IMG/VR virus record: IMGVR_UViG_3300049436_000157
Coordinates: 1 to 56,970 of that record
Length of the DNA stretch: 56,970 nucleotides
Direction: 5' to 3' (one strand)
DNA from: a virus
Taxonomy: Duplodnaviria > Caudoviricetes
Under the pieces are notes generated by a model. The model did not search any database and had not been told where the DNA came from. It saw nothing but the letters and a program-made list of their open reading frames with translations. Both the position numbers and the translations under genes were made by a program. This document shows, piece after piece, positions 1-49,300 of the stretch (its first letter is position 1; the number at the start of each line of letters is the position of its first letter).

Positions 1-798
1 TCACTCATCTCCACCAGACGCACAACCCGTCGGTGCAGGGGACGCGCCGCAAGCGGCGCTCCCCTGACCTAGTGCGTTGTGCGTCAAAATCCGCCATGCA
101 GCCGCAGCCACTCGCGGAACCTGGGCATTTCCAAGACAGCGCAGTCTGTCCAGCCGGTCGGGAACCCCATCAACCACTCTGCCCACGTTGGGTTCACTCG
201 GCCAGTCGAGGAAGTTTTCAGCCCCTCCACTTCGGCCAACCGGCTTGCCAGTGTGTCCGCCTTGCCCCTGTGTCGGCCGCCGCATTTCCTCCCAATCGAA
301 GCGGTAAGCGTCGGCCAAAATCCAAAGCCTCTTTCTTTCGTGCGGAGCGTCGGCGTTGTCTGCGCCAACAACTCCCCATCGAGCATCAAACCCCAACTCG
401 GCCAGGTCGCCGAGAACTCGGCCCAACCCCCGAGTAGTGAGCGCTGGTGAGTTTTCCACCCACACGAATCGCGGTCGTACTTCGCCAACGATCCGCGCCA
501 TTTCCCGCCATAGGCCGCTTTCAGGCCCGTCAATCCCGGCTCCTGCTCCGGCGACGGAAATGTCCGTGCAGGGGAATCCACCGCTGACAACATGCACACT
601 CCCTGCCCAGGGCTTACCGTCGAAGGTTCGCACATCGTCCCAGATCGGGAAGGCTGGAAGCAGTCCGTCGCGCTGGCGGGCGAACAGCACGCTCCGGGCG
701 TAGGCATCAACTTCAACAGCGCAGACGGTGCGCCATCCAAGGATGGTGCCTCCCAAGATGCCTCCGCCTGCTCCTGCAAAAAGTGCCAACTCATTCAT
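1..798 (-). CDS. C5-cytosine DNA methyltransferase (alpha polypeptide), cassette 1
   Basis: Motif I LFAGAGGG, IV GGFPC, VI ENS, VIII R-x-R, X LGNAQVP. ATG at 798 with AAAGG SD. The C-terminal tail is encoded by attC1. Confidence 0.92.
   Translation of the reverse strand: MNELALFAGAGGGILGGTILGWRTVCAVEVDAYARSVLFARQRDGLLPAFPIWDDVRTFDGKPWAGSVHVVSGGFPCTDISVAGAGAGIDGPESGLWREMARIVGEVRPRFVWVENSPALTTRGLGRVLGDLAELGFDARWGVVGADNADAPHERKRLWILADAYRFDWEEMRRPTQGQGGHTGKPVGRSGGAENFLDWPSEPNVGRVVDGVPDRLDRLRCLGNAQVPRVAAAAWRILTHNALGQGSAACGASPAPTGCASGGDE
20..82 (+). repeat. attC: attC site 1 (63 bp)
   Basis: R'' GCACAAC, 5-nt spacer, L'' GGT[G]CAGG ... L' CCTGACC, 6-nt spacer, R' GTTGTGC; central GCGCCGC-AA-GCGGCGC hairpin. 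Confidence 0.9.
84..794 (-). CDS. Nested alternative-frame beta polypeptide of a two-subunit C5 methyltransferase (M.EcoHK31I-like)
   Basis: 236-aa ORF entirely inside the methyltransferase gene, starting 4 nt after its ATG (ATGAATGAG). Carries motif IX-like RVNPTWAEWLMGFPTGWTD, which the main frame lacks. Confidence 0.75.
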   Translation of the reverse strand: MSWHFLQEQAEASWEAPSLDGAPSALLKLMPTPGACCSPASATDCFQPSRSGTMCEPSTVSPGQGVCMLSAVDSPARTFPSPEQEPGLTGLKAAYGGKWRGSLAKYDRDSCGWKTHQRSLLGGWAEFSATWPSWGLMLDGELLAQTTPTLRTKERGFGFWPTLTASIGRKCGGRHRGKADTLASRLAEVEGLKTSSTGRVNPTWAEWLMGFPTGWTDCAVLEMPRFREWLRLHGGF

Positions 799-819
799 CG
801 TTACCTTTCGTCCGTTGCC

Positions 820-887
820 GCACAACAATTCGTCCAACCGTACCTCGCGCAAAAAGCGCGCGAGGCCGGTTAACTCAATCGTTAGCA
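820..887 (+). repeat. attC: attC site 2 (68 bp)
   Basis: GCACAAC-AATTC-GTCCAACC...GGTTAAC-TCAATC-GTTAGCA; closely resembles the classic 59-base-element pattern AACAATTCGTTCAAGC...GCTTAACTCAAGCGTTAG. Confidence 0.92.
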
Positions 888-1651
888 GGCAAAAGCATGT
901 CGCCCTGCACCGCCGTATCGCCAGCGCCGACTTTTGGTTCAGCGAACATTTGCTCTTGAGCCTGAGCGCCCGTCACCCTCGGCACCGCGATTCCGTGGAA
1001 ATACTCATGCTCGCGCTCAATCCCGATAAATCGCCGCCCCTCCAAGTGCGCCGCCTCGCCAGTGGTTCCGCTTCCCATGAAGCAGTCCAGAACCGTGTCG
1101 CCTGCGTTCGTGGTCAGTCGTATCAGGTGCCGCATCACGTCCACCGGCTTCTCTGCCGCGTGCGCCGTCGTCTTGCTGTTACCGGCCATCCACCGGCAGC
1201 GGTAAATGTCGCTCGCGCTCCGGTTGTCTATCTTGGCGTCTGGCATCCCGGCAAAAAGCACAACCTCGTAAGTCGGGCGCAGTTGGCGCGGCCCTGCTGG
1301 TCCGATCCATTCCTTGTCCCAAATCATCAGCGAGTCCACTTGCCATTTCACCTTAGCAAACGCATAGAGCAGTGTTGGCAGGCTGCGCCAGTTTCCGAAG
1401 ACACAGGCAAACCCATCTTGCTTCAGTGCGCGCCGCGCCAGCTTCAGCCATTCGGCGTACCACCAGGCGCTATTTTCCATGTCAGCCCATCCGCCAGCTT
1501 TCGCGCTTGCGTCGCCGGTCGAGATTGCGCCAATCATGTAGGGCGGGTCGGTTATCACCGCGTCCACGCTCATCGGCGGCAACTCCGCCATCACTTCCAG
1601 GCAGTCGCCTTGCCACAGTTCAGCGTTCCCGATTGTCACTTTCTCAGCCAT
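875..1651 (-). CDS. N4/N6 DNA methyltransferase (beta class), cassette 2
   Basis: GDCLEV, catalytic DPPY N-terminal to H-x-x-EKP and DCFMGSGTT. GGAG SD. Stop codon lies within attC2. Confidence 0.93.
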   Translation of the reverse strand: MAEKVTIGNAELWQGDCLEVMAELPPMSVDAVITDPPYMIGAISTGDASAKAGGWADMENSAWWYAEWLKLARRALKQDGFACVFGNWRSLPTLLYAFAKVKWQVDSLMIWDKEWIGPAGPRQLRPTYEVVLFAGMPDAKIDNRSASDIYRCRWMAGNSKTTAHAAEKPVDVMRHLIRLTTNAGDTVLDCFMGSGTTGEAAHLEGRRFIGIEREHEYFHGIAVPRVTGAQAQEQMFAEPKVGAGDTAVQGDMLLPAND

Positions 1652-1676
1652 CGTCACTCCGTAGTTACCGTTTGCC

Positions 1677-1746
1677 TGCTAACCCATCATTCCAGGGGAC
1701 GCTGCGCGATAAAGCCGCGCATCGCCCCTGAATTCAGGCGTTGTGC
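1677..1746 (+). repeat. attC: attC site 3 (70 bp)
   Basis: TGCTAAC-CCATC-ATT[C]CAGG...CCTGAAT-TCAGGC-GTTGTGC. Confidence 0.92.
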
Positions 1747-2300
1747 GTCTTGCACTTCGCTGCCAGCTCTACCAGCCATTGCGCCAGCTCGGGCGGTGTG
1801 TGCTCTCGTTCGGCCTTTGTGATGTGCGGCCGGTAGTCGTGTCGCTTCCGGCTTTGCACCACATAGGCCGCCTCGCCCATCACGTAGGGCAGCGGCGGTA
1901 TGTCGCCCGGCTCGCACCCCACCACGTAGAACCACGTCGCCTTTTCGGCTTTGTGGCCCCACCACTTCTGCGGCGCGGCCAGTGTCCACCCGCCGTATTG
2001 GTCGCGCTCGCCCGGCATCGGCAGCTTCTGCGCCGGCCAGAGCGTCGAGCCTGCCGGGTGCTCAAGCACGCCGCCAAACTCCCGCACCAGCGCCACCGCA
2101 AGCCGCGCCAGGTTCATCTCGTCGGGTCGTGGCCGTGCGAACGTGCGCAGCCGGCCCCACGCCCTGCAAGGCGGGTGCGCCACTACCGGGCAACCTCCGG
2201 GCCAGCGCCTGGCGTCCCTCTCAGCGTCCCACACGTCCACGCCGGCCAGTGCCTTGTAGTGGCTATCTGCGCGGGCGAAAAGTACTGCAACCGTCATCAC
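1734..2300 (-). CDS. Divergent C5-methyltransferase-like protein, cassette 3
   Basis: VVAHPPC (motif IV-like), VLEHP (VI-like), Q-x-WWGH-x-x-x-KAT (VIII-like), REHTP-x-x-LA (X-like). Canonical FxGxGG is absent. Stop lies within attC3. Confidence 0.6.
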   Translation of the reverse strand: MMTVAVLFARADSHYKALAGVDVWDAERDARRWPGGCPVVAHPPCRAWGRLRTFARPRPDEMNLARLAVALVREFGGVLEHPAGSTLWPAQKLPMPGERDQYGGWTLAAPQKWWGHKAEKATWFYVVGCEPGDIPPLPYVMGEAAYVVQSRKRHDYRPHITKAEREHTPPELAQWLVELAAKCKTHNA

Positions 2301-2770
2301 TCATCTCCACCAGACGCACAACCCGTCGGTGCAGGGGACGCGCCGCAAGCGGCGCTCCCCTGACCTAGTGCGTTGGGCGTCGTCAGCGTGATCCAGCCCC
2401 GTTGCTCTGCGCTGTCGTCGATCCGTCCTTCGTGTCCGATCAGAAGCGCCGCGTCGTTCGCCATGCGCTCTGTGCATTCGTTCTCCACGGCCGGGATGTT
2501 CGGAAGCCAGAAGAACAGCGCATCCTTCAGCCGTTGGTTTTCGGCGCGCAGTTCGTGGTTTGCTTGGTCCTTCTTCGCGTACAGGTCGGCGTCCTTGTTC
2601 GCTTGGGTCAGCGCGTCCCGAAAATCTTCAACAGCGCGGTCGCCGGACTTCACGAGCGCCAGCAGTGCGCCGGCCAAGCTCTCAGCGTCTTCGCGCCGAA
2701 TGAACGATCCATCCTCGCGCTGGTGCATGCTTCCAGGGTATGCGCTGTCGTATGCCTCAATCGTTTTCAC
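2297..2770 (-). CDS. Hypothetical coiled-coil phage protein, cassette 4
   Basis: GTG at 2770 after GGAAGGG. Reads through attC4; its stop overlaps the start of the next gene. Confidence 0.75.
   Translation of the reverse strand: MKTIEAYDSAYPGSMHQREDGSFIRREDAESLAGALLALVKSGDRAVEDFRDALTQANKDADLYAKKDQANHELRAENQRLKDALFFWLPNIPAVENECTERMANDAALLIGHEGRIDDSAEQRGWITLTTPNALGQGSAACGASPAPTGCASGGDE
2316..2378 (+). repeat. attC: attC site 4 (63 bp; same sequence family as attC1 and attC7)
   Basis: GCACAAC-CCGTC-GGT[G]CAGG...CCTGACC-TAGTGC-GTTGGGC. Positions 2297-2375 are identical to 1-79. Confidence 0.9.
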
Positions 2771-2795
2771 GTCGTTTCCCTTCCGGGCGTCCGCC

Positions 2796-2865
2796 GCCCA
2801 ACTCTGCATTCGAGCGGGACTGGCCGCATAAGGCCGCGTCCATCCCCTCAATTTGACTGTTGGGC
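2796..2865 (+). repeat. attC: attC site 5 (70 bp)
   Basis: GCCCAAC-TCTGC-ATT[C]GAGC...CCTCAAT-TTGACT-GTTGGGC. Confidence 0.9.
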
Positions 2866-2869
2866 CTCA

Positions 2870-3097
2870 TTAGTGCGGCATCCTGAATTCGCATGCCGGC
2901 GGGTTTGCCGCAATGTCCGCCAGTGCGCTTTCCAGCCATCCGCGCACGAACTCGTCTCCCTCGGTGGTCCGCAGCAGGTTGTAGCCGGCCAACATCAGCG
3001 CCCCGAGTGCGTCCGACTTCTCGCGCTTCGTTGGCAATTTGTGCATCAGCGCCCCGAGCATGTCGAGCGCCAGCTTGGCAATCTGGTCTTCATTCAT
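2870..3097 (-). CDS. Small hypothetical protein (75 aa), cassette 5
   Basis: GAGGA SD and ATG; helical composition; fills the 325-bp cassette. Confidence 0.8.
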   Translation of the reverse strand: MNEDQIAKLALDMLGALMHKLPTKREKSDALGALMLAGYNLLRTTEGDEFVRGWLESALADIAANPPACEFRMPH

Positions 3098-3125
3098 TTC
3101 GCGTTCCTCTCTTGTTCCGTCTGAG

Positions 3126-3190
3126 GCCCAACAACCGCATCGAGCGGACCGGGCGAAAAGCGGCCCGGCCCCTCATGCGGAGCGTTATAC
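3126..3190 (+). repeat. attC: attC site 6 (65 bp)
   Basis: GCCCAAC-AACCG-CAT[C]GAGC...CCTCATG-CGGAGC-GTTATAC. Confidence 0.9.
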
Positions 3191-3194
3191 GTCT

Positions 3195-3941
3195 TCATGC
3201 CGCTATCACCATTTGCACGGCTTGCGGCTCCCAAAACGTCGTCGCCTGGTGGCTCTCGATCCGCTCACGCATCACCAGCGCCCTGCATTCCTTGCTTGCT
3301 GGCGTGTAGGTGCCGCGCCAGGCCGAATAAATTCCCACGTTCTGCGCGATATTGGTGCTGTCCGCGCTGGCGAACGGCAACCGCGAGAACACATCCGGGT
3401 TCAACATCCGCAGGCCATGCAACTTGCAAACCGGGTTTCCGTTCTTGTCACACACGGCGTTCATGGCTTCGGCGATCCGGTCCCACCATCGTGCATTGCC
3501 AACGGTGGCGTACTGGCCGCTGCTGCCGAGACAGACCCGCTGCCACTCCCGCGCAAGACGCCGTAGCCGATCAATAGATTCGTGCATGTGCCAGACTGGG
3601 GCACCGACCCATCGAGATACCGCATCGACCCAAGGCCATTCAGCCAGCAACTCATCATTGGCTTTCTCATCGCCATCAATCACGTCCGGGATAACTGCAA
3701 AGTCAAAAGACGGGTATCGGTGCAACTCGGCCACCCAAGCGTAATAGCGGCTCCAGTCCGTTACCGGCTCGCCGCTTTTCCACGCCGAGAAAGCGCCGTT
3801 ATCCACCGCGAAGGACTGGCAAACCTCAAGCACAAGTCCCAACTGGTCGGGGTAGCGGAAGGACACAAACGAATGCCCTCCGCTCACTGCGGCGCGAGCT
3901 GCTGTCGCTGGCGTTATCGGTAGGCCGTGGTAGTGGATCAT
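3195..3941 (-). CDS. TGT/DpdA-like (tRNA-guanine transglycosylase-fold) phage protein, cassette 6
   Basis: Start MIHYHG at 3941 (ATGA overlap). Motifs DNGAFS, IPDVI, PVWH, LHGL and SADST resemble TGT-fold DSGxF / HxxG / SxDS motifs. Confidence 0.6.
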   Translation of the reverse strand: MIHYHGLPITPATAARAAVSGGHSFVSFRYPDQLGLVLEVCQSFAVDNGAFSAWKSGEPVTDWSRYYAWVAELHRYPSFDFAVIPDVIDGDEKANDELLAEWPWVDAVSRWVGAPVWHMHESIDRLRRLAREWQRVCLGSSGQYATVGNARWWDRIAEAMNAVCDKNGNPVCKLHGLRMLNPDVFSRLPFASADSTNIAQNVGIYSAWRGTYTPASKECRALVMRERIESHQATTFWEPQAVQMVIAA

Positions 3942-4213
3942 TTGCGCTCCGTGGTCGCAGCCGTATAACCCGTCGGTGCAGGGGACGCGCCGCAAGCGGC
4001 GCTCCCCTGACCTATGGCGTTGGCAGGCAATGGCCGCCATCCCTGCGGCTCGCCATACATGCCGTGCCACGTCCACCCGCCGCCGTTGAAGTCGATCCAT
4101 GTCGCCTCGACAACCTGCTCCCACTGTCGCTTTTCCACGCCCTTTGCGTACTGTCGGTACGGGTGGTGCATCAGCATGTGGATCACCGTTCCATCCTTGG
4201 GTGCCGTTTCCAT
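3938..4213 (-). CDS. DUF551-like phage protein; C-terminus extended through attC7
   Basis: (EWRP)METAPKDG ... P-x-GWRPLP family signature. Start uncertain, because the conserved WRP lies upstream of the only ATG. Confidence 0.7.
   Translation of the reverse strand: METAPKDGTVIHMLMHHPYRQYAKGVEKRQWEQVVEATWIDFNGGGWTWHGMYGEPQGWRPLPANAIGQGSAACGASPAPTGYTAATTERK
3963..4025 (+). repeat. attC: attC site 7 (63 bp)
   Basis: GTATAAC-CCGTC-GGT[G]CAGG...CCTGACC-TATGGC-GTTGGCA. Confidence 0.9.
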
Positions 4214-4265
4214 CGGGCGCCATTCCGTATCGGCTGTTGATTGAGCCTGCTGGAGAAGGGTGTCC

Positions 4266-4607
4266 TTACGCGGTCTTGAGGTTGGCGGTGGTGATGTCGG
4301 TCGTGCTGGGGATGCTCTTCAGGTCGAGCTTGGTCTGGCGCGGATCGTCGGCGACAAGGTGGCCTTCCGGGGTGGCGAACAGCATCGCCTCCATGGGCTC
4401 TTCGGCCGGCTTGGTGAGTTTGACGTTGCCGGTGATGTGCATGGCGCCTCCTCGGGTGGCTTTCTTCACCTTGATTTCGATGACCAGCTTGCCGGCCTTC
4501 CCGCTGCCGTCGACGGCGCTGACCAGTTCGGCCATCTTGTCGCTGGCGGTGTCGATGAAGATCCCGCCGCCGATGTGGCGCAGGGTGTCGGTGATGGGTT
4601 TGCTCAT
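4266..4607 (-). CDS. Hypothetical phage early protein
   Basis: AGGAG SD, start MSKPITDTL, strong GC3 bias. Confidence 0.8.
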   Translation of the reverse strand: MSKPITDTLRHIGGGIFIDTASDKMAELVSAVDGSGKAGKLVIEIKVKKATRGGAMHITGNVKLTKPAEEPMEAMLFATPEGHLVADDPRQTKLDLKSIPSTTDITTANLKTA

Positions 4608-4641
4608 GGCTTCTTCTCCTTCTGGGTGGGTAGTGCTGCCG

Positions 4642-6369
4642 TTAGGCAGCGGCTTGGTAGTGGCTGATCTCGCCCCGTTCCATCCAGAACGCCTGGAAGG
4701 TGTCACCGGGCAGCGTCGGCAGGCCCTTCAGGGTGGCGAAGATCAGGGCCGTGTCGATCTCTCCGGCGGTGGCCAGTCCGTGGAGCCAGCGCAGGAGGGT
4801 GGACCGGTTGCCCATGTCCAGCACATCCATCCGGTCCAGGGCGATCAGGCTCAGGCCGGATACGTGGGCGATGGCCTCGGCCAGGGACGCATCGGCCCGC
4901 CAGCGGGCGGACTCGCTGCACAGGCTGTAGAGCCTGCCGCCGATGCGCACGCTCATGTCGGGATCCACGGCAACCTGTGCCCATCCGGTGGCCGAGGCGG
5001 TAGCGCGCAGCCGGTCGTTGAACGGCTTGATGGCATCTGACAGCAGTTCGCCCGGGATGCCATCCGGAGCCAAGGCGTCGGCGATCTTGAGCCAATCCTT
5101 CAGGTGCTGGTGGTTCTCGGCAGCGGCCCGGGTCTTCTTGTCGGCGGCGGTTGCCTTGCGCTGGGCATCTTCGACGAGACGGATGGCCGCCTGGTGGTTG
5201 GCCGCTTCGTGCTTGAGGTTGGCGATCGAGCTTTCCAGGTCGGCGATCATCTCGGCGGTGACCGTATCCGGCGTGGCCTCGATCTCCTGGAGGGAGGCCG
5301 CGGCGGCCTTGGCTTGCTCCAGGTCGCGCTCTCCGTTGGCCACGGAGCGCACCATGACTTCCAGCGCCCGTTCGTACTCGGGCAGGGCTTCGCGTGCCTC
5401 CGGGTCTGCCTTCTGGGCCGGCGCTTCGTATTCGACCAGAGCGCCGTCGGCGTGCCGGTGCATGAGGATGGATCCGCAGCTCGGGCAGGTGTAGGACGGA
5501 GGGGTTTCGGTGCTTCCGGAGGCCTTCGCCCGGGTGGCTTCCACCTTGGCCTGCCACTCGGCCATGTCGCCCCGGTCCTTCTCAAGCTTGGCGGTGATTC
5601 TGCCGATATTGCCGGCCTGCTCCTGGAGCCCGGCCACCTTGGCGCGACGCTCGTCCTGCTGGCGCTTCATCGCCCGGAGTTCGCCCATACGCTCCGTGTC
5701 GGCGGATATGCGCTCATTCGCGGCAGCCAGGGCCGCCTTGGTTTCGTCCAGGCCGGTGGTGTCGATCGCCGGCTTTTCCGCTTTCCAGGTCTCGGCCTTC
5801 TTTTCGCCGTAGGTCTCGCCGGTGATCTGCTTCCAGGCGCCGCGGCACTCGGTCGCCTTGGTCTTGGCATAGTCATGGGCGGCCGGGAAGCCTGAGACCA
5901 GCAGCGGGGCAACGGCTTCCGCCTTGTCGGCCGAGCAGCCGCGGTCGATCATCTTCTGCCGGATGGCTTTGGGCGCGGCAGAGGATCCGGTCAGGGCAAA
6001 GAGCATGCTGCGGCGCTCGTTGTCCTCGAGGCTGGCGAAGCGCGGCGGATCCAGCACGAATGGCAGGGCGCCGTGGATCGGGTCGCCGCTCATCGTGCGC
6101 TTGCCATCCGGCAGGGTGATGGCCACCTCGCCGGCGGTGTGCTTGATCAGGACCGATGCCGCCTTGGCGCCGTCTCGGACCAGCGCGGGGTAGTCCTTCT
6201 TCAGCTTGACGCGGACCACCTCGCCGGTCATGGCCAGGCGGATGGCCTCCTGCATGCTGGTCTTCCCCTGCTCGTTGCCGCCGGCCACCAGGACGACGGG
6301 CCGGTCGATGGCCAGTCCGATGTCGGTGATGGCCTGGAAGTTCTGGATGTTGATGGCGGTGATCTTCAC
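4642..6369 (-). CDS. Rad50/SbcC-like ABC ATPase
   Basis: IQNFQ, Walker A GGNEQGKTS, coiled coils around a CPSC zinc hook, LCSES signature, Walker B LIALD. Confidence 0.88.
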   Translation of the reverse strand: MKITAINIQNFQAITDIGLAIDRPVVLVAGGNEQGKTSMQEAIRLAMTGEVVRVKLKKDYPALVRDGAKAASVLIKHTAGEVAITLPDGKRTMSGDPIHGALPFVLDPPRFASLEDNERRSMLFALTGSSAAPKAIRQKMIDRGCSADKAEAVAPLLVSGFPAAHDYAKTKATECRGAWKQITGETYGEKKAETWKAEKPAIDTTGLDETKAALAAANERISADTERMGELRAMKRQQDERRAKVAGLQEQAGNIGRITAKLEKDRGDMAEWQAKVEATRAKASGSTETPPSYTCPSCGSILMHRHADGALVEYEAPAQKADPEAREALPEYERALEVMVRSVANGERDLEQAKAAAASLQEIEATPDTVTAEMIADLESSIANLKHEAANHQAAIRLVEDAQRKATAADKKTRAAAENHQHLKDWLKIADALAPDGIPGELLSDAIKPFNDRLRATASATGWAQVAVDPDMSVRIGGRLYSLCSESARWRADASLAEAIAHVSGLSLIALDRMDVLDMGNRSTLLRWLHGLATAGEIDTALIFATLKGLPTLPGDTFQAFWMERGEISHYQAAA

Positions 6370-6611
6370 GCTGCGGCCCTCCTGCTGATGGTCTGGTACT
6401 CGGTGCGGTCGATCATGGTGACGACGTGCCGGCCCGGTGTCGGCGGCTTCTCCTTTGCGTCGGCGTCCCGGTACTGCTGCTGCTGGGAGGCCATGAAGCG
6501 ATCAACATCCCAGGCGCGATGTTGGGTAGCGATGACGGCGCCGGTCTTCGTGTCGGTGACCTTCACGAACACGTCTCGCCCGGTCAGTTCCTGGTTGATG
6601 GAGGCGGCCAT
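6366..6611 (-). CDS. Hypothetical protein
   Basis: Tightly coupled to both neighbours in the recombination operon. Confidence 0.7.
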   Translation of the reverse strand: MAASINQELTGRDVFVKVTDTKTGAVIATQHRAWDVDRFMASQQQQYRDADAKEKPPTPGRHVVTMIDRTEYQTISRRAAA

Positions 6612-6613
6612 GG

Positions 6614-7780
6614 CTATTCCGCCTGGAACATATCGCTGCCACCGGTGCCGGCCGGCTTGGCATTGGCGATGGACACGTTGATCTGACGCTGCTGGTTCTC
6701 CGGCAGGCCGCGGGCGATGTCCCGGGCCATATCGAAGTCGCCGGACTTGACGGCCGACATGGCGTCGTCGAAGGTTGGGGCGCCAGAAGCTGCGCGTACT
6801 GAAGAAACCTCGGCGCTTACCGTCCCTACAGAAACCGTTTCCGCGTCTGCTTCGATGTGGGTGGTCACCGTTTCAACCTCCTGATGCTCCAGCGCAGGAG
6901 GTTCGGCGCCTTCCTCGAACACTTGGCTGATGGTGGCCGGGTCGGCCATGGCGGAAAAATCGACGGCCCGCTCGTCCAGCTGGCTTGCGATGGCGATAGG
7001 GTCGTTTGATGCCAGCGGAAGCCTCGAGTTGATGATCTTCTTGATCACCGTCTTGCTTGCCATGGTGTCCTCGTGCATCACCCATGGCGTGTCGGCGAGT
7101 TTCTGCGCGGCCTTGGCGCGGTCCTTGTCGCTGTCGGCTTGATCGACGGCGCGAACCAGTGAGTTGTAGGTTTCGGACTTGGAGCGCGCCTTGTAGATTT
7201 CGTCGAGCGGCAGGGTCAGGGCTACCTCGTTGCCGTTCTTCATCTTGATGAGGCAGTAGGCGCCGACCAGCGGTCCACGGTCCTTGAGGGCCTTCCTGAA
7301 CCGGACCAGGCCGGTGCTACCCTGCATGTGCTCGAATTCGTCTCGTTCGTGGATCGCCTCGGCCTCGAGGGACGCTACGTTTGGACTGCGGTAGGCCAGG
7401 GTGATGAATCCCTTGTAGCCGATCTGGAATTGGCACTCGGTTCCGATGACGCCCCATTTTCCGTTCGGCAGCTTGCCGCGCTTGTCGTAGGGGATCAGGT
7501 ACGCCTGCCCGGCCGGCGTGTTGGGCTCAAGTCCAAGGGCGGCGGCGGCCATGAACGCACCGAGCACGCTCTGCGGGTCGCACTGGGCGAGCTTCGGGGT
7601 CTTGCGGATCGCATTGACGCAGAGCGCCAGCATGCGGTCTCCGGTCATGTAGCGGCCGGCCATGGCCGTCATCTGCTTCTTGGTCTTCTCGGCGCCGAGC
7701 AATTGCAGGATATTGGCCCGAGGCTGGCTTGCTGCTGGTGTGCCCCCTTCCTTCAGGGTGGCGATGTTGGTCGCGCTCAT
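6614..7780 (-). CDS. recT: RecT-family single-strand annealing protein
   Basis: PKLAQCDPQS...LGLEP...GQAYLIPY...QFQIGYKG...MASKTVIK. Confidence 0.93.
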   Translation of the reverse strand: MSATNIATLKEGGTPAASQPRANILQLLGAEKTKKQMTAMAGRYMTGDRMLALCVNAIRKTPKLAQCDPQSVLGAFMAAAALGLEPNTPAGQAYLIPYDKRGKLPNGKWGVIGTECQFQIGYKGFITLAYRSPNVASLEAEAIHERDEFEHMQGSTGLVRFRKALKDRGPLVGAYCLIKMKNGNEVALTLPLDEIYKARSKSETYNSLVRAVDQADSDKDRAKAAQKLADTPWVMHEDTMASKTVIKKIINSRLPLASNDPIAIASQLDERAVDFSAMADPATISQVFEEGAEPPALEHQEVETVTTHIEADAETVSVGTVSAEVSSVRAASGAPTFDDAMSAVKSGDFDMARDIARGLPENQQRQINVSIANAKPAGTGGSDMFQAE

Positions 7781-7801
7781 GGTCTGGTGGTCTCCAGTGA
7801 A

Positions 7802-8617
7802 TTATTCGTGATAGATACAGGTGTCGAAAACAGGGCAAAACTTCTCCCCGCACATGAAGCTGCGCGGGTTCGGCGGAAACAGTCCGGTGCGGAACATCTC
7901 GGCGGCGAACTGGATCAGGCCCGGCATGGTGTCGGTGCCGACCATGATCCGTTTCGGGTTGATCACCGAGGCGGTGGCCACTTCCAGAGTGCCCTTGGTC
8001 TTGAGGCCGATGATCTCCGCCGGCTCGGTGATGGCCTGGCCGGTGGTGTGCTCGTGCAGAAGCTCATAGGTGCCGAGCTGGGCGCCGTGGCCATCGATCT
8101 TGGCCGCGCCTTTCTGCACCGCCGTGGCGCCGCTTTTCAGGTCGGCGATGCCCAATCCGCTGGTCCCCTGCTTGAGGCGTGAGCGGTCCATCGTGCCGGT
8201 CAGGCGGACGATGACGCCGTTGCCGCAATCAATGTCCATGGGCTTTGTTTCAAGCTCAACCCCGGCGAAGGTGTAGCGCGGGCTGATCTCGGCGCAATAC
8301 TTTGAGTGCAGCGTCAGGCCAATCTTCTCGGCCTCCGGCATGGTCAGATCGTCCAGGTTCATGTCGACCTCGGCGGCCGATTCCTTCAGGGAGTCGACCA
8401 CGGCGCCGGCGGCGTCCGTTGGGGTCAGGCCCTGGCCGTTCATGCGGCTGGTGTCGTAGATGGCCGTGGCCCTGTGGATGGCCGTGCCAAGGGCCATGCG
8501 CAGGCCGATGGGGTTGCGCTTCTTGTCGATGTGGATGGCGTGCCAGCGCATGGCGCAGTCGAATAGCGCGCCCCAGCTGGAGGCGCGGACCGTCATCGAC
8601 GGGGTGATTTCGTTCAT
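7802..8617 (-). CDS. PD-(D/E)XK exonuclease (RecB/Cas4-like)
   Basis: GTAIH, LTGTMD, IADLKSG, QLGTY; one N-terminal plus three C-terminal Cys; adjacent to recT. Confidence 0.85.
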   Translation of the reverse strand: MNEITPSMTVRASSWGALFDCAMRWHAIHIDKKRNPIGLRMALGTAIHRATAIYDTSRMNGQGLTPTDAAGAVVDSLKESAAEVDMNLDDLTMPEAEKIGLTLHSKYCAEISPRYTFAGVELETKPMDIDCGNGVIVRLTGTMDRSRLKQGTSGLGIADLKSGATAVQKGAAKIDGHGAQLGTYELLHEHTTGQAITEPAEIIGLKTKGTLEVATASVINPKRIMVGTDTMPGLIQFAAEMFRTGLFPPNPRSFMCGEKFCPVFDTCIYHE

Positions 8618-8620
8618 TGT

Positions 8621-8827
8621 TCAGTCCTCGTGGTGGTCGTGGTTGACGCCGTGGTTCTTGCAGGCCTTGCAGCGCCTGGCATTACGGTTTTCGTCCTGGG
8701 TCAGGGTCCGGTCGAAGGCGACGCAGTGCGCGGCGCCGAAGATCCGCGCCAGGTGCCCGCAGTGCGCCGGGCAGATTCCGTCGGCCAGGCCCGGGGAGTA
8801 GTTCAGGTGCTCGGCGGTGGTGGTCAT
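8621..8827 (-). CDS. Small Cys-rich protein
   Basis: CPAHC..C..CKAC; ATGA overlap with the upstream gene. Confidence 0.6.
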   Translation of the reverse strand: MTTTAEHLNYSPGLADGICPAHCGHLARIFGAAHCVAFDRTLTQDENRNARRCKACKNHGVNHDHHED

Positions 8828-9108
8828 CGGGTGGCCTCCCATCTCGTCGGGAGCCCGTCAATGCGGCGGACCACTTCGCGCTCAGCCATCCGCCGGCAGA
8901 CATTGGTGATCGTCGACGGGGACATGTCGCCCAGGTCAAAGTAGATGTCGGTGATCGAGGCCTGGCCTATCCGCTTGATGGCCATCAGCACGCGGTCATC
9001 CTTGGCCCGGTCCGACTGGCGGCGCGACTGGATCCGGCGCTGCTTAGCTGTCACTGGAGAAACGAGCGGCTTGCAGCCTCCGATCGCCAGATTCCACATG
9101 GATGTCAT
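8824..9108 (-). CDS. Winged-HTH-like protein
   Basis: VLMAIKRIGQASITDI...SPSTITNVCRRM...V-x-R; ATGA overlaps. Confidence 0.65.
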   Translation of the reverse strand: MTSMWNLAIGGCKPLVSPVTAKQRRIQSRRQSDRAKDDRVLMAIKRIGQASITDIYFDLGDMSPSTITNVCRRMAEREVVRRIDGLPTRWEATR

Positions 9109-9422
9109 CGAACGATGCTCCACAATCCCGGGGTGCCCCATCCCTTCTTCGACCGCTCTGCCTGGCCGCGCTGGAACATGTCGCGCATAATCTCCGCGAC
9201 CGTGTTCCTCGATAGGCCGGAGAGCTTGATGATGGCGTTTTCTGATACCGGACCATGATCGACCAGGATGGAAATCACCTGCTCCCTGTTCATGCCCCGG
9301 ATACGCTTAGCGGCTTGAACGCCAGCACGCTGGCCGGCGGCGATCCTGGCATCAGGAGTTCCCATCATTGGATAGGAAGCAACAGAGGCGAGGCCGGATA
9401 TTTGAGTTAGCCACATGCTCAT
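9105..9422 (-). CDS. Winged-HTH-like protein
   Basis: ILVDHGPVSENAIIKLSGLSRNTVAEIMRDM; GGAGG SD. Confidence 0.7.
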   Translation of the reverse strand: MSMWLTQISGLASVASYPMMGTPDARIAAGQRAGVQAAKRIRGMNREQVISILVDHGPVSENAIIKLSGLSRNTVAEIMRDMFQRGQAERSKKGWGTPGLWSIVR

Positions 9423-9456
9423 GTCGCCTTCCTCCGCACCCATGTGGCCCGGGCAA

Positions 9457-10050
9457 TCACGATGCCGACACAACCACTTTGAGAGCGCCAGCCGCCGAAG
9501 CGATGGCGTCCTTTGCCGCCTTCTCGATGTTCTTGGCGATCACCTTGTTAACGTCTGTCACCGCCTCTTTCGCCGCCTTTTCCATCGTGTCCTTGATGTA
9601 CATCTTCATAAGCACGGTCAGGCGCGGCCCGCACGATCGCCAGTTGTAGGTCGATTCGTTCTTTGCATCCATATCGGCCTTTGAGTTGCCGTGGTAGTCC
9701 ACTTCCTCGGTCATGTAGGTCTCTGCCCGGTGCGCGATGTATTCCTTGAAGGTCATCGACGCCGACTGCGGCTCGCCGTAGCGATTCGTCTTGCGCATGT
9801 CGGCCTTCTCGATCAGTTCGCCAACCCGGGGAACCAAATGCACGGCAGCCAGAGCCGCAATCTTTTCATCGACGGCCTTCTGAATGCGGGCCTCGATTGC
9901 CTTCTTAAACCGCGACTCGTAACGCGTCTCTTGCTCGGTGTCTGGGTCGAATCCGCTAGTGCTCAGCAGCACTTCAACCGCTTGATCTACGATCCGGTCG
10001 CCAAGTGCTTCTGGGCTGATTCCGAGTGCTTCGAGAGTCTTGATGTCCAT
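9457..10050 (-). CDS. Hypothetical phage protein
   Basis: 197-aa helical ORF with AAGGA SD. Confidence 0.8.
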   Translation of the reverse strand: MDIKTLEALGISPEALGDRIVDQAVEVLLSTSGFDPDTEQETRYESRFKKAIEARIQKAVDEKIAALAAVHLVPRVGELIEKADMRKTNRYGEPQSASMTFKEYIAHRAETYMTEEVDYHGNSKADMDAKNESTYNWRSCGPRLTVLMKMYIKDTMEKAAKEAVTDVNKVIAKNIEKAAKDAIASAAGALKVVVSAS

Positions 10051-11593: not shown

Positions 11594-11635
11594 AGTATGC
11601 GCAAAAGTTTGCCGCTTCGTCAAGCAAAAGTTTGC
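11594..11635 (-). promoter_or_regulatory. PL promoter with two operators
   Basis: -35 TTGACG (11623-11618), 18-bp spacer, -10 CATACT (11599-11594). GCAAAAGTTTGC at 11601-11612 and 11624-11635. Confidence 0.85.
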
Positions 11636-12935: not shown

Positions 12936-12979
12936 TTGACGAGCGCAAAAGTTTGCGTCTAAGATGCGCAAAACTTTGA
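12936..12979 (+). promoter_or_regulatory. PR promoter with operators
   Basis: -35 TTGACG (12936-12941), 18-bp spacer, -10 TAAGAT (12960-12965). GCAAAAGTTTGC at 12945-12956 and variant GCAAAACTTTGA at 12968-12979. Confidence 0.85.
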
Positions 12980-13953: not shown

Positions 13954-14004
13954 TGGCCAGCAGCAATGATCGGTGCCCGCCGGGCCTGGACGGAGGATGC
14001 GGCC

Positions 14005-15066
14005 ATTAACTACTACGAACATCACATCAGAGACTACGACACGGCCACCGCCCACCTGACGTGGGAGCAGGATCTGGCCTACCGGCGCCTGATCGCGTGG
14101 TACTACCGCAAGGAGGCACCGATCCCGGGCGACATCAAGGAAGCCTGCCGCCAGGTACGGGCCGTCACAAAGCCCCAGCGCGATGCCGTGGCCACCGTCC
14201 TGGCAGAGTTCTTCGACCTGGCGGACGACGGCTGGCACAACGGAACTTGCGACGAGGTGATCGCAGCATTTCACGCCGGAGAGCCCGAGCGGGAGGCGAA
14301 GAAGCGGAACGAGGACACGCGCCTAGCCAAGCATAGAGCCGAGCGGTCAGAGCTTTTCGGGATCATCAACGCCGCAGGAATCCACCTGCCTTGGAATACC
14401 AAGATGGAGGAGTTGCGGACCGTTGCAGACCGGGTTCGGTACGGGAGACCTGAAACACCTGCAACGGCACCTGAAACAAAAACTGCAACGCCTGCAACGC
14501 AACCTGCAACGGCACCTGCAACGCCTGCAACGGCTACCCAGACACCAATACCCAATACCCAATACCCAGAAGGTAAACCTAACTCCGAACAAACGACGTC
14601 AACGACGATACCCGTGTCAACCGCGCAACCTCCCCCGTCGTCGTCGCCGGGATTCGATTCGAGAGCCGAGTCCGTCTGCGCGGTCTTGCGAAAGCTCGAG
14701 GAGGACAGAGGCAAGCGCTGCACGATCCACGCCAAGCACCCGAAGGTGCTGCGATGGGTAGAGGCCGGGATGACGGACGCAGACCTGCGCCAGGCCTACG
14801 ACCTGGCTGTGGCCCAGCGGCATGAGGACGGCGACCAGACCCCCATCAATGCCGGATTCCTCGACCTGTTCGTCGCCAAGGTCATGAACCCCAAGGACTC
14901 GACGAGCGCGGTTACCGCAGTGGCCAAGGCCTGGCACCAGTCCGCCTCCGGGGTCGCTGCCAAGGCGGCGGAGTTGGGGCTGCCTCCGTACCACCCCGAC
15001 AAGTACCCGGGCGGTCAGCCTGAGTTCAAGACTCGTGTGCTTGCAGCGGCGGGGGTTGCACCGTGA
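14005..15066 (+). CDS. YdaU/DUF1376-family replication initiator (start at ATT 14005 or ATG 13966)
   Basis: NYYEHHIRDYDTATAHLTWEQDLAYRRLIAWYY signature; internal iterons; position after cro and the cII-like gene. Confidence 0.85.
   Translation: MNYYEHHIRDYDTATAHLTWEQDLAYRRLIAWYYRKEAPIPGDIKEACRQVRAVTKPQRDAVATVLAEFFDLADDGWHNGTCDEVIAAFHAGEPEREAKKRNEDTRLAKHRAERSELFGIINAAGIHLPWNTKMEELRTVADRVRYGRPETPATAPETKTATPATQPATAPATPATATQTPIPNTQYPEGKPNSEQTTSTTIPVSTAQPPPSSSPGFDSRAESVCAVLRKLEEDRGKRCTIHAKHPKVLRWVEAGMTDADLRQAYDLAVAQRHEDGDQTPINAGFLDLFVAKVMNPKDSTSAVTAVAKAWHQSASGVAAKAAELGLPPYHPDKYPGGQPEFKTRVLAAAGVAP
14449..14565 (+). repeat. Iteron-like repeats, probable replication origin
   Basis: About 8 copies of (C)CTG(C/A)AAC followed by tandem CCAATAC repeats, inside the initiator gene. 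Confidence 0.75.
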
Positions 15067-46392: not shown

Positions 46393-49300
46393 ATGGCTCG
46401 ATACGAGATCACTTCTCCCGACGGGCGCCGGTTCGAGGTAACGGCGCCCGACGACGCCGGCCAGGACGATGTTCTGGCCTACGCCCAATCGAATTTCGGC
46501 AGCAAAGATCAGGACGGTGGTGGGCGCTCCGTTCTCGATGTCGTTTCGGCCGGTATCCACGGAATCGTTGACGATGTGCGCGGCGGAATATCCAGGATCG
46601 ACGCCAGGCGGCGCGAGGAATCGATTGCTCGCAGCAATGCGGCCAATCAAGAAATGCTGGCCACCAGCAGAGCATCCGGAACCTCTGCTGAACTCGAGCG
46701 TCAGGCGTTGGCCAAAGACGCGGCAGCCAGGTACCAAAATGATCCGGTGAAGCGCGGAATCGACTTCGGCCGTGATCTTGCATTGAGCAGTGCGCAAGGG
46801 GTAGTCGGACTAGGCGAGGCGGCCGTCGGTATCGGCGATCTGGCCACCGGCTGGACCGGATATACGCCGGGCCAGGCGCTGAAGGATACCGTTGGGTACG
46901 ATCCAGAGCGCACCAAGTCTTCGATCATTGGCGACCTGAAGAGCGATTCCGGCAAGGCCCGGGATGCAATCTACCAGGGCACCAAGGGATTCACCGAGAC
47001 ACTGCTGACCCTGGGCGCCGATCCGGCAATGCTGGCCGACAAGATCACCGAGTCGCTGGCGGGAACGGTTGGGGCTGGCGCCATCGGCGGCAAGGTGGTG
47101 CAGATGGCGCTGCCCAGGGTCACAGCTGCCGCGTCGGCGGCCGGGTTGTCTGGGGCCGAAGCCGAGGCCTTTATTGCCGACCGCCTGGCCAAGATCGCCA
47201 TTGGTGCCTCTGCTGGTGCGGAAGGGGCGCAGCAGGCTGGCAACCTCGCGGAGACAGCGCGCCAAGGGGGGAAGTCTTGGCGTGACTACGCGCTGCCGGC
47301 CATTGCCTCCGGGATTGGCACGGGCGCCATTGCCGCCGGTTCTGGCGCCTTGGCCAAGAAGATCGGTATCGGCGACATCGAATCGGACATTGCCCTGCGC
47401 GGGCAGCGGCCGGGCCTCAAGACTGACCATGGGTTCGCCGTGAATCGTGCCGCCATCGAGGGCATCAAAGAGGGTTCCCTGGAGGAGATGCCGCAGTCCG
47501 TCCAGGAATCGGCCTGGGAGAACGTCGCCATGGGGCGGCCGTGGGACGAGGGGCTGGGCAAGGCTGCGGCCTCTGGCCTGGCAACTGGCGCAGGAATGGG
47601 TGGCGGTCACGCCGCGGTCAGCCGGCCATCGGAGTCAGTACCATCCGAGCCGCTGGCAAATACCGCAGGCGGGGGTAATGCAATCCATGCGGGTGATGTG
47701 CTCGGCTCGCCGGTGGTTGAGGCTTCGCCGGGAGCGGGTAGTGCGCCGGCGGTGGCCGCCGTGCCGACGGAATCCGACAAGGCGCTCTACACGCCCAAGA
47801 GCCTGACGGCCCTCGACAGGGTTCAGGAAATCGACATGCGCCTGGCGGCGCCCGATCTTGCCCAGGGCGAGGCCCAGTCGCTGAGCGCGGAACGGGACGG
47901 AATCACGGCGTCCTGGCCCACGGCAACGCCAGGCGTGCCCACGTCCTTTTCCACGGAGACCGGAGCCCGCATCAACGGCCAGTACGCCCTGATGGAAGCC
48001 GGAGACCTGACCACTTCCCACGACGAGAACCTGCGGCCGGTCGGCACGTACCCGGTGGAGCTTCAGCCCCGCGAGCGGGAACGCCATGCCTCGGAGATGC
48101 AGGTCCAGCAGATCGTCGGCAAACTGGATCCGGCCCGGCTGGGCGAATCGGCAGACGCCGCCACCGGCGCGCCGATCGTTGGTGCCGACGGGCTGGTGGA
48201 ATCCGGAAACGCCCGGACCATTGCCCTGAAGCGCGTCTACCAGGCCAACGGCCAGAAGGCGCTCGACTACCGGCAGTTCCTGAAGGACAACGCCGGGCGC
48301 TTCGGTATCACACCAGAATCCGTCGATGCCCTGCAGAAGCCTGTGCTGGTGCGGGTGCGCAGCACCCCGGTGAATCGGGCCGAGTTCGCGCGCCAGGCCA
48401 ACGCCTCGACCGTGGCGCGCATGAGCCCGTCCGAGCAGGCGAGGTCCGACGCCGCGGCGATCGACAGCCTGGACGACCTGAACCCGGACGACGCGGGAGA
48501 TTTCACGTCCGGAAGCTCGCGGCCGTTTATCCGCCGCTTCCTGGCCAAGTTGCCAGGCACCGAGCAGGCCGGCATGATCGACGCCGGCGGGCAACTCTCC
48601 CAGGCCGGCTATGCGCGGATCCGCAATGCGGTGCTGGCCAAGGCCTACGGCGACTCGCCAGTGCTGCTGCGCATGGTGGAAAGCCTCGACAACAACCTGC
48701 GCAACGTCACGGCCGGCCTGATGCGCGTGGCTCCCCAGGTGGCCAAGGCCCGCGAGGCCATCGCCGATGGCGCCCTGTTCGATGCCGACATCACCCAGGA
48801 TCTGATGGCCGCCGTCGAGGAGCTGGCGACCTTGCGCGACAAGGGCACCTCGGTGGCCGACTACCTGGCGCAGTCCAGCATGTTCGGCGACAGCCTGTCG
48901 CCGGAGGGCCGCGAGCTTCTGATGTTCCTCGCGGACAATATCCGCAGTCCCCGGCGCATCGCCGAATTCATCCAAGCATACCTTGAAGCCCTGACGGCCG
49001 CCGGCAACCCGGCCCAGGGCTCCGTGTTCGGCGAGCAGCAGGCGCCGGCCAAGGCCGATCTCATGGCTGCCGCTGCAAGGAGTCAAGGCGATGCCAAGCA
49101 ACCAGGATCCACTGATGCCGGTCAAGTTGCCGGGAACCAAGGCGCTATTGGACAAGGTGAAGGCCAGCCCGCGAATCAGGCAGGCGATCCGCGCGGCGCT
49201 CAAGGCGATGCGGGCGCCAGCGAATGGGTAGCCTTCCCGCCTGAGAGCGGCACGCTCGGCATCCCCCGGGCGGACATGCCACAGATCAAGGGCGAGCACC

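Follow-up and report, generated by a model that had tools for sequence, protein, structure and literature searches.

Results

The 56,970-nt stretch of DNA analyzed here (the window) is a single IMG/VR record, IMGVR_UViG_3300049436_000157, which IMG/VR classes as a provirus with an estimated completeness of 100% and in which phage-family matches identify TerL, portal, major head, internal virion, and tail proteins. Near its left end, between positions 20 and 4025, lie seven palindromes of 63–70 nt (spans measured from the R'' 7-mer to the R' 7-mer), all in the same orientation. Judged from its sequence, this interval is very probably a set of genuine integron attC cassettes embedded in a temperate phage, with the open reading frames (ORFs) of the cassettes inverted.

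Seven palindromes with the architecture of attC sites

The original prediction had placed seven palindromes of 63–70 bp at exactly the positions where we located them, in one orientation, and had assigned them a common layout, which all seven display. Their + strand sequence opens with NNNNAAC and continues with five spacer nucleotides, an L'' of 8 nt that includes one extra base, a stem-loop, an L' of 7 nt, six further spacer nucleotides, and GTTNNNN. The + strand is the top strand of every site and the − strand is the folding bottom strand, on which the order becomes an RYYYAAC-like R', 6 nt, the 7-nt L', the stem-loop, the 8-nt L'' with its extra base, 5 nt, and GTT. The AAC and GTT trinucleotides are invariant in the seven sites and occur in 134 and 136, respectively, of the 138 sites in a wider set, while the RRRY part of GTTRRRY is only loosely kept (e.g., GTTAGCA and GTTATAC). 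The extrahelical L'' base is a G in four sites and a C in three copies of one core, the near-identical core that the sites at 20, 2316, and 3963 have in common, and the consensus alignment places a T 6 nt before the extrahelical base in all seven. Folding of the bottom strands had been suggested as a check; as DNA, the − strands reach −16.6 to −24.4 kcal/mol (z-scores of −2.7 to −4.8), with only 0–3 of 200 shuffles folding as well, and the consensus fold contains 21 pairs, 11 of which show compensatory changes. The portions of Nivina et al. (2016; PMC5027507) drawn on here describe attC sites as having a 5–6-nt unpaired spacer, an extrahelical bottom-strand L'' base that is usually a G, and a conserved T, with a 6-bp stem between. 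The fine structure of the window sites agrees with these published features.

We built a covariance model, R1, from the − strands of the seven sites and ran it on the whole window with filters off. The sites scored 56.6–82.2 bits on the − strand and 10.3–26.6 bits on the + strand, and no further site was found in the 57 kb (best unrelated match 15.4 bits, E = 0.11). Because the sites match their own model by construction, this run shows only that there are no extra sites and that the strand asymmetry is strong. Scanning the window with Rfam gave no match at gathering thresholds, which is uninformative since Rfam has no attC family. The reading of the palindromes as terminators was tried and rejected: ten terminator-like sites were called in 1–9500, none of them on an attC site, and this count was not above that of shuffles. 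Across the same interval no sigma-70-like promoter was called, and no attC site was called terminator-like.

With the + strand as top strand throughout, site 1 (20–82; R'' GCACAAC, R' GTTGTGC; 82.0 bits) lies within a repeat that spans 1–85. Site 2 (820–887; GCACAAC and GTTAGCA; 67.8 bits) has an extrahelical G in its bottom-strand L'', and site 3 (1677–1746; TGCTAAC and GTTGTGC; 68.9 bits) has a bottom-strand extrahelical G and a T 6 nt apart. Site 4 (2316–2378; 82.2 bits) repeats the core of site 1 and has the R' GTTGGGC; it is followed by site 5 (2796–2865; R'' GCCCAAC, R' GTTGGGC; 56.6 bits) and site 6 (3126–3190; R'' GCCCAAC, R' GTTATAC; 65.4 bits). Site 7 (3963–4025; R'' GTATAAC, R' GTTGGCA; 75.8 bits) has the core of sites 1 and 4. 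No R'' partner for this last R' (GTTGGCAGGC) occurs in the expected orientation to the right of 4025, and site 7 is thus the distal end of the array.

Six cassettes and their genes

The seven sites delimit six cassettes, each beginning at the TT of one R' (G|TTNNNN) and ending with the G of the following one. One main gene had been proposed to sit between each pair of sites, and this is what we find; all six genes are on the − strand, a point on which the prediction was silent. Cassette A (77–881) encodes a DNA methyltransferase-like protein of 236 residues (84–794) that matches phrog_1008 (E = 5e-21) and has no Pfam or NCBIfam match; its homologues, with 31–41% amino acid identity, are found on 30 metagenome contigs. 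The product of cassette B (882–1740) is an N6/N4 DNA methyltransferase of 260 residues (875–1657; PF01555, E = 6e-39; phrog_67, E = 6e-62), the stop codon of which falls inside the spacer of the neighboring attC site. Cassette C (1741–2372) encodes a 188-residue phrog_12600 protein (1734–2300; E = 2e-70) with 76% amino acid identity to the product of a cassette in locus L039. The ORF of cassette D (2373–2859) encodes 157 residues (2297–2770), runs through attC site 4, and overlaps the next gene by GTGA; its product has no family match, and its strand was called from frame, third-position GC, and operon continuity only. Cassette E (2860–3184) contains a 75-residue ORF (2870–3097), likewise with no family match, whose GC content at third codon positions is 0.81, versus 0.65 for the + strand ORF. 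Cassette F (3185–4019) encodes a DpdA/queuine tRNA-ribosyltransferase-like protein of 248 residues (3195–3941; phrog_887, E = 2e-75). Phage-family matches are therefore available for four of the six cassette proteins (two DNA methyltransferases, the DpdA-like protein, and the phrog_12600 protein), in line with the proposal that the cargo consists of typical phage genes. The further proposal that the array is embedded in a phage early operon also stands, as the cassette genes continue, in the same direction, an operon of exonuclease, RecT, and SbcC-like genes.

Two ORFs, that of cassette D and a backbone ORF at 3938–4213, run through the attC core common to sites 4 and 7, and they do so in the same frame. 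The stop codons of both overlap the start of the next gene (GTGA at 2297–2300 and ATGA at 3938–3941), which looks like translational coupling across the attC hairpin.

Recognition of known attC sites, chained ends, and breakpoints

Four independent lines of evidence support the identification of the palindromes as integron attC sites. The IntI-type identity that had been claimed for them draws on their structure, on the cross-recognition of textbook sites together with family members adjacent to intI, on the chaining of R' and R'' ends along arrays, and on breakpoints at G|TT. When R1 was run on plasmid pAPEC-O2-R, it picked out, on the intI1 strand in every case, the attC sites of catB3 (43.4 bits), aadA5 (36.8 bits), and dfrA1 (21.0 bits); apart from these it reported one other site at 15.1 bits and, on the opposite strand, a weaker echo of the catB3 site (18.9 bits). 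Beside chromosomal intI genes, R1 identified 13 sites in genome G186 and 9 in genome G121, again all on the intI strand.

Within the window, the R' of each site and the R'' of the next are complementary at 6, 7, 7, 6, 7, and 6 of the 7 variable positions. Over 98 distinct adjacent site pairs, drawn from the window, 2 viral contigs, and 31 metagenome contigs, this complementarity averages 5.61 of 7 positions and is at least 6 in 66 pairs, as compared with 3.67 for the R'' and R' of the same site (at least 6 in 16 of 123) and 3.88 for sites n and n+2 (10 of 66), with controls at 3.4–3.9 overall. These counts leave out L048 and L040 (whose sites duplicate those of L043 and L033), weaker opposite-strand echoes, and sites at most 3 nt from the end of a locus.

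A 27-nt word from the start of cassette A is present in 35 metagenome contigs, 30 of which include full flanks. These 30 loci show 23 distinct left contexts before the cassette, and the contexts diverge at the G, the point at which gene exchange had been predicted to break (G|TT). Conservation is 100% rightward from the TT over the 27 selected bases and high beyond them, and is 26–60% to the left of the G; the right-side value partly reflects selection of the word, while the left side is free. The attI sites of L065, L063, and contig G007-C74 of a metagenome-assembled genome (MAG) break at the same place, being identical up to GGAG|TT and unrelated afterwards. Five viral records that contain the site 1 core show no nucleotide similarity to the window outside attC and almost no protein similarity. 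Hence, at the nucleotide level, the sites are conserved independently of cargo and backbone.

At several loci (L033/L040, L058, L062, L041, L046, L029, and L044), the left context of the cassette A start is not an attC site and ends in G, and two of these contexts are alike. Such sequences may represent secondary insertion sites or further types of attI.

Cassette ORFs on the bottom strand

The strand modeled by R1 is the recombinogenic (bottom) one, and in the class 1 integron, as in the two chromosomal ones, intI lies on it. In these controls the longest ORF lies on the top strand in 11 of 12 intervals (G186), 7 of 8 intervals (G121), and 2 of 2 intervals (class 1). The cassette genes of the window, in contrast, lie on the bottom strand, where four of the six have family matches. 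They are not co-oriented with the attC top strand, the orientation in which the integron promoter Pc could read them. The same holds for L065, whose cassette genes lie on the bottom strand in 6 of 6 intervals (with PHROG matches in four) and whose intI is on that strand too, and the better-scoring R1 strand coincides with the methyltransferase gene strand in 33 of 35 metagenome loci with R1 matches. Thus, intI, attI, and attC keep their canonical geometry, and it is the ORFs that are flipped and read towards attI and intI.

Integron integrases in related phages

The window as it stands, having no intI or attI, is an array cut at its left end that resembles a CALIN (cluster of attC sites lacking integron-integrases). 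It contains seven sites in 57 kb, where a CALIN has at least two attC sites and no intI nearby, and the record ends inside the array; a complete integron, with intI (TIGR02249) and attI beside the array, is not found within it. Relatives of the array share a layout in which recombination genes, cassettes, attI, approximately 60 nt, and intI follow one another, all co-directional. The fullest example is the viral contig L065, where a RecE-like exonuclease is followed by seven attC sites, attI, a full-length IntI, and then HNH, SSB, and tail genes. Its cassettes encode phrog_1008 and phrog_954 methyltransferases and Mom-like and PAPS-reductase-like proteins, and the crossover point lies only ~60 nt from the intI start codon. 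Against TIGR02249 (cut-off 265), the IntI proteins of L065, L063, and L064 score 464.6, 459, and 454 bits, respectively. In L066, also a viral contig, an SbcC-like protein (37% identical to that of the window), a methyltransferase, and a PAPS reductase precede 2 attC sites, an intI fragment, and a separate phage integrase. L035, a metagenome contig, contains a RecT homologue, seven attC sites, and an intI truncated after residue 254, and a related viral contig has up to 13 attC sites.

The site family also occurs away from recombination genes. In an unrelated phage, G002 (L009), three attC sites with very short cassettes (spacers of 281 and 185 nt) lie between TerL and portal at 8351–9049; G005 has the same arrangement, and G003 and G004 probably share it, as indicated by site scores and ORF layout. 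No IntI match was found in the records of G002, G003, G004, or G005.

Members of the phage-linked IntI group are 82–90% identical to the MAG copy and 52.8% identical to IntI1. Among deposited phages nothing exceeds 53% identity to the group, and across 400 other genomes sampled from the class the closest IntI is at most 63–64% identical to it. Four genomes flagged as unpublished in the search of the class (G304, G047, G316, and G149) support no conclusion drawn here.

Two observations concern individual integrase genes. Past residue 254, the truncated intI of L035 (7200–8300) switches frame into what appears to be the C-terminal end of a different tyrosine recombinase, which could reflect a deletion that fused two integrase genes or an assembly chimera. 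In Virus Rctr41k (L069, KX853513.1), a gene at 4680–5678 annotated as "xerD integrase-like" encodes a protein 47.6% identical to the phage-clade IntI and is surrounded by small co-directional genes, including methyltransferase-like ones; R1 has no match in the first 13.6 kb of this virus.

The left edge of the record and the sequencing runs

Positions 1–85 of the window are 99% identical to 2297–2381, the end of the phrog_12600 cassette, so that site 1 lies inside a repeat at the record edge. In locus L039, an independent case, cassette A comes after a phrog_12600 cassette, which is also the order that the left end of the window implies. By this reading of the edge, the array plainly continues past the left end of the record.

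Part of window 1–6000 occurs in 16 bioreactor or sludge runs, and we compared the contigs of 4 of them (Logan); one of these, X1, is not an independent run and may be the source sample itself. The core of site 3 (1690–1736) has a summed word depth of 153–265x in four bioreactor runs versus ~3–20x in its flanks, and loose ends at this core are joined to other sequences, which indicates that many other cassettes in those communities share it. In X1, the cassette pieces have depths of 11.2–19.3, as compared with 11.2 for a 39.7-kb backbone contig that starts inside site 7, and in X2 and X3 they have depths of 5–13 against ~7–9 for the backbone. The similar depth of cassettes and backbone in X1–X3 argues against a chimera.

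The adjoining operon and other features of the phage

The backbone next to the array (4266–8617, − strand) runs in the same direction as the cassette genes, with no gap or strand switch. It encodes a phrog_204 protein (4266–4706) that adjoins the array, followed by an SbcC-like ATPase (4642–6369), RecT (6614–7780), and a PD-(D/E)XK exonuclease (7802–8617). Ralstonia phage YO158_1 is 81% identical to window positions 4296–4599 by megablast; among deposited phages, megablast with the window gave only this 300-nt match and a TerL match, with no close relative, and viral contigs searched with the SbcC-like protein of the window yielded no relative.

At the other end of the record, an ORF of 3,525 residues (46393–56970) ends on the final base. 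Its PHROG matches are to large phage proteins (phrog_5143, residues 520–890) and a primase-like stretch (phrog_19458, residues 1382–1627). Short direct repeats at 14450–14548 (CTGCAACG-type units, family D2) lie inside a primosomal/replication-protein gene (13966–15066); they are iteron-like and may mark the phage origin. A GCGCAAAAGTTTGC-type motif (family D20) is repeated at 11599–11634 and 12943–12978, in the divergent regulatory region between the leftward and rightward operons, and these repeats may be repressor operators. ARAGORN found no tRNA in the window or in L035; by eye, the stretch after the truncated intI of L035 resembled the 3' end of a tRNA, but it is not a whole tRNA gene and we make no claim for it.

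Discussion

Several observations weigh against reading this interval as a genuine, inverted, phage-borne cassette array. Neither intI, nor any other tyrosine recombinase, nor an attI motif was found in the window (the attI motif of L065, L063, and G007 has no match there at up to 3 mismatches), with the limit that the record is cut inside the array, so that absence from the phage itself is not shown. L063 has both intI and attI, and R1 finds no match upstream of intI even at an E value of 5. A heuristic based on ORF strand, which is crude and unreliable for short cassettes, assigned 62 of 91 distinct metagenome and viral cassettes to the bottom strand and 29 to the top; most of the top calls concern short, weak ORFs, and the one made for the methyltransferase cassette of L034 is known to be false, and the claim of inversion rests on family matches and controls instead. 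Some cassettes may truly be top-stranded, and the strand of cassettes D and E comes from codon statistics only. The left end could be an assembly break inside a repeat, given the array's position at the edge, the 1–85 repeat, and the provirus nature of the record. Contigs of the four runs break at attC cores, leaving the cassette order to the original assembly, and they contain no excision joints and no joins across alternative cassette orders; as contigs drop rare variants, the missing joints are no evidence against recombination.

Among other explanations, a possible one, though we doubt it, is that the array is a CALIN lacking its own integrase, its cassettes having been laid down formerly or moved in trans by the IntI of a host or co-infecting element, with nothing integron-related further to the left. 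The lack of intI and attI in the window fits this, as does the lack of an IntI match in all five viral records that share the site 1 core and in the whole record of G002, with its three sites between TerL and portal. The several non-attC left contexts of cassette A are those expected from secondary-site insertion, and the phage cases reported in the main text of PMC9892861 are mostly CALINs (17 versus 3 complete integrons). The polarity of the array, however, points to a platform on its left, and the array continues beyond the end of the record, where L039 provides the implied succession of a phrog_12600 cassette and cassette A; moreover, L065, L066, and L035 have arrays next to recombination genes with intI, or a remnant of it, at the equivalent end. 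It is very unlikely that we are instead looking at a host chromosomal integron that merely adjoins a prophage, with the provirus boundary set too far to the left. Such an error is conceivable for a provirus record that was excised from a longer contig and has the array at its edge, in a class where 147 of 401 sampled genomes have an IntI match. Yet all cassette ORFs are co-directional with the early operon, with neither gap nor strand switch, four of the six cassette proteins match phage families, the ORFs face the opposite way from those of the two chromosomal integrons analyzed, and in L065 and G002 phage genes flank the same site family on both sides.

An artifact of metagenome assembly, in which foreign cassettes were stitched to a phage backbone through shared attC cores, would account for contigs built from short words breaking at attC cores, for a site 3 core 10–30 times deeper than its flanks, for loose ends that join other sequences to the same cores, and for a record that begins inside a repeat. 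We consider it very unlikely, because the cassette pieces have backbone-like depth in X1, X2, and X3 and junctions of this kind with recombination genes recur in independent contigs. Hardly credible, finally, is the idea that the palindromes are ordinary intergenic hairpins (terminators, repetitive extragenic palindromic [REP]-like repeats, or RNA stabilizers) that happen to resemble attC. They are GC-rich and intergenic, they lie on the gene strand and would be transcribed as sense RNA hairpins, and ORFs read through two of them; but none is terminator-like or followed by a T-run, their model finds textbook attC sites and arrays beside intI, and chained R'/R'' ends and G|TT breakpoints are foreign to terminators or REPs.

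On the reading that these are attC cassettes with inverted ORFs in a temperate phage, a mechanism can be proposed. Its three components, read-through from an early promoter, an attI and intI to the left of position 1, and an exchangeable anti-restriction kit, are together somewhat more probable than not. The phage early promoter, rather than an integron Pc, would drive the cassettes by read-through, giving a transcript in the order of recombination genes, cassettes, and finally intI where present. From the polarity of the array, attI and intI would be expected beyond the record, just to the left of position 1. As the last gene of the early transcript, intI would be expressed so that cassette capture and shuffling take place during infection or induction; its position there would mean that IntI is made when the phage is active and single-stranded DNA plentiful. 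IntI would insert incoming cassettes at attI and excise or shuffle resident ones, and the cassettes would shield phage DNA from restriction. Because the cargo mostly modifies phage DNA, the array may act as an exchangeable anti-restriction kit in otherwise unrelated bioreactor and sludge phages. The broadest form of the proposal, that a distinct IntI lineage in temperate phages runs a "backwards" integron, expressed as one early transcript and swapping probable anti-restriction cassettes at G|TT among otherwise unrelated phages of wastewater bioreactors, seems to us evenly balanced between true and false.

The layout recalls several known systems. In lambdoid phages, accessory ("moron") genes lie between int and the recombination genes, where the leftward early operon ends. 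The array shares with these regions its genome position and the logic of co-transcription, with variable, non-essential genes downstream of exo/bet-type genes, but here each variable gene is bounded by integron-type recombination sites. In "inverted integrase" integrons such as those of Treponema, intI itself is flipped and reads towards the array. As in the phage family, intI and the cassette ORFs are then on one strand; in our relatives, by contrast, intI has its canonical position and points away from the array, and what is flipped with respect to attC is the ORFs. The sedentary chromosomal integrons of Pseudomonadota (G186, G121) have the same attC family as defined by R1, the same attC-to-intI orientation, and similar multi-cassette arrays of small genes, whereas their ORFs are on the top strand and read away from intI and those of the phage cassettes are on the bottom strand and read towards it. 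The class 1 integron of pAPEC-O2-R (dfrA1-catB3-aadA5), whose three attC sites R1 finds, differs in its resistance cargo, its co-oriented top-strand genes driven by Pc, and its platform on a transposon or plasmid.

Phage-borne attC cassettes as such are not new. Qi, Rajabal, Ghaly, Tetu, and Gillings (2023; PMC9892861) surveyed 10,705 phage genomes and, as given in the main text of that work, found 3 complete integrons, one In0, and 17 CALINs, the latter with a minimum of two predicted sites (the figures describe 2–3). The main text further notes methyltransferase cassettes, treats the complete integrons as pieces of host chromosomal or class 1 integrons, reports that IntI1 recombined 5 of 6 phage attC sites with attI1, and proposes that phages tap the cassette pool against restriction. 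Our array resembles those cases in being an attC cluster with methyltransferase cassettes inside a phage genome, and differs from them, as they are described there, in its seven chained sites, its place in an early recombination operon, its bottom-strand ORFs, and the distinct IntI group of its relatives. The supposition that such an arrangement had not been described in phages is thus only partly upheld, as phage-borne integrons and CALINs were in print in 2023, while the inverted early-operon layout did not appear in the literature searched, which extended to neither subscription journals nor the supplementary tables of PMC9892861. Within that literature, PMC9892861 was the only work on phage-borne attC arrays, and no long chained early-operon array, no systematic bottom-strand cassette ORFs, and no phage-linked IntI group were found; the supplementary CALIN list of PMC9892861 might include arrays with inverted ORFs.

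Integrons are familiar as devices by which bacteria capture genes, and two recent preprints report that the cassette arrays of chromosomal integrons stockpile anti-phage defenses (bioRxiv 10.1101/2024.07.02.601686 and 10.1101/2024.07.02.601719). Across the window and its relatives, the cargo consists of methyltransferase, Mom-like, DpdA-like, and PAPS-reductase-like genes. Our results suggest that phages use the integron machinery in mirror image, with an array in the early operon and cassettes oriented for phage transcription. Such elements are probably under-counted, since callers of provirus boundaries and short-read assemblers break exactly at these arrays. If the proposal is true, they would be the phage-side counterpart of the bacterial chromosomal integrons that hoard anti-phage defense systems and would provide a concrete mechanism for the quick turnover of phage counter-defense genes. 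They would also constitute a cassette pool that the bacterial Pc promoter is not expected to express, and would offer a natural test of the evolution of attC strand choice and cassette orientation.

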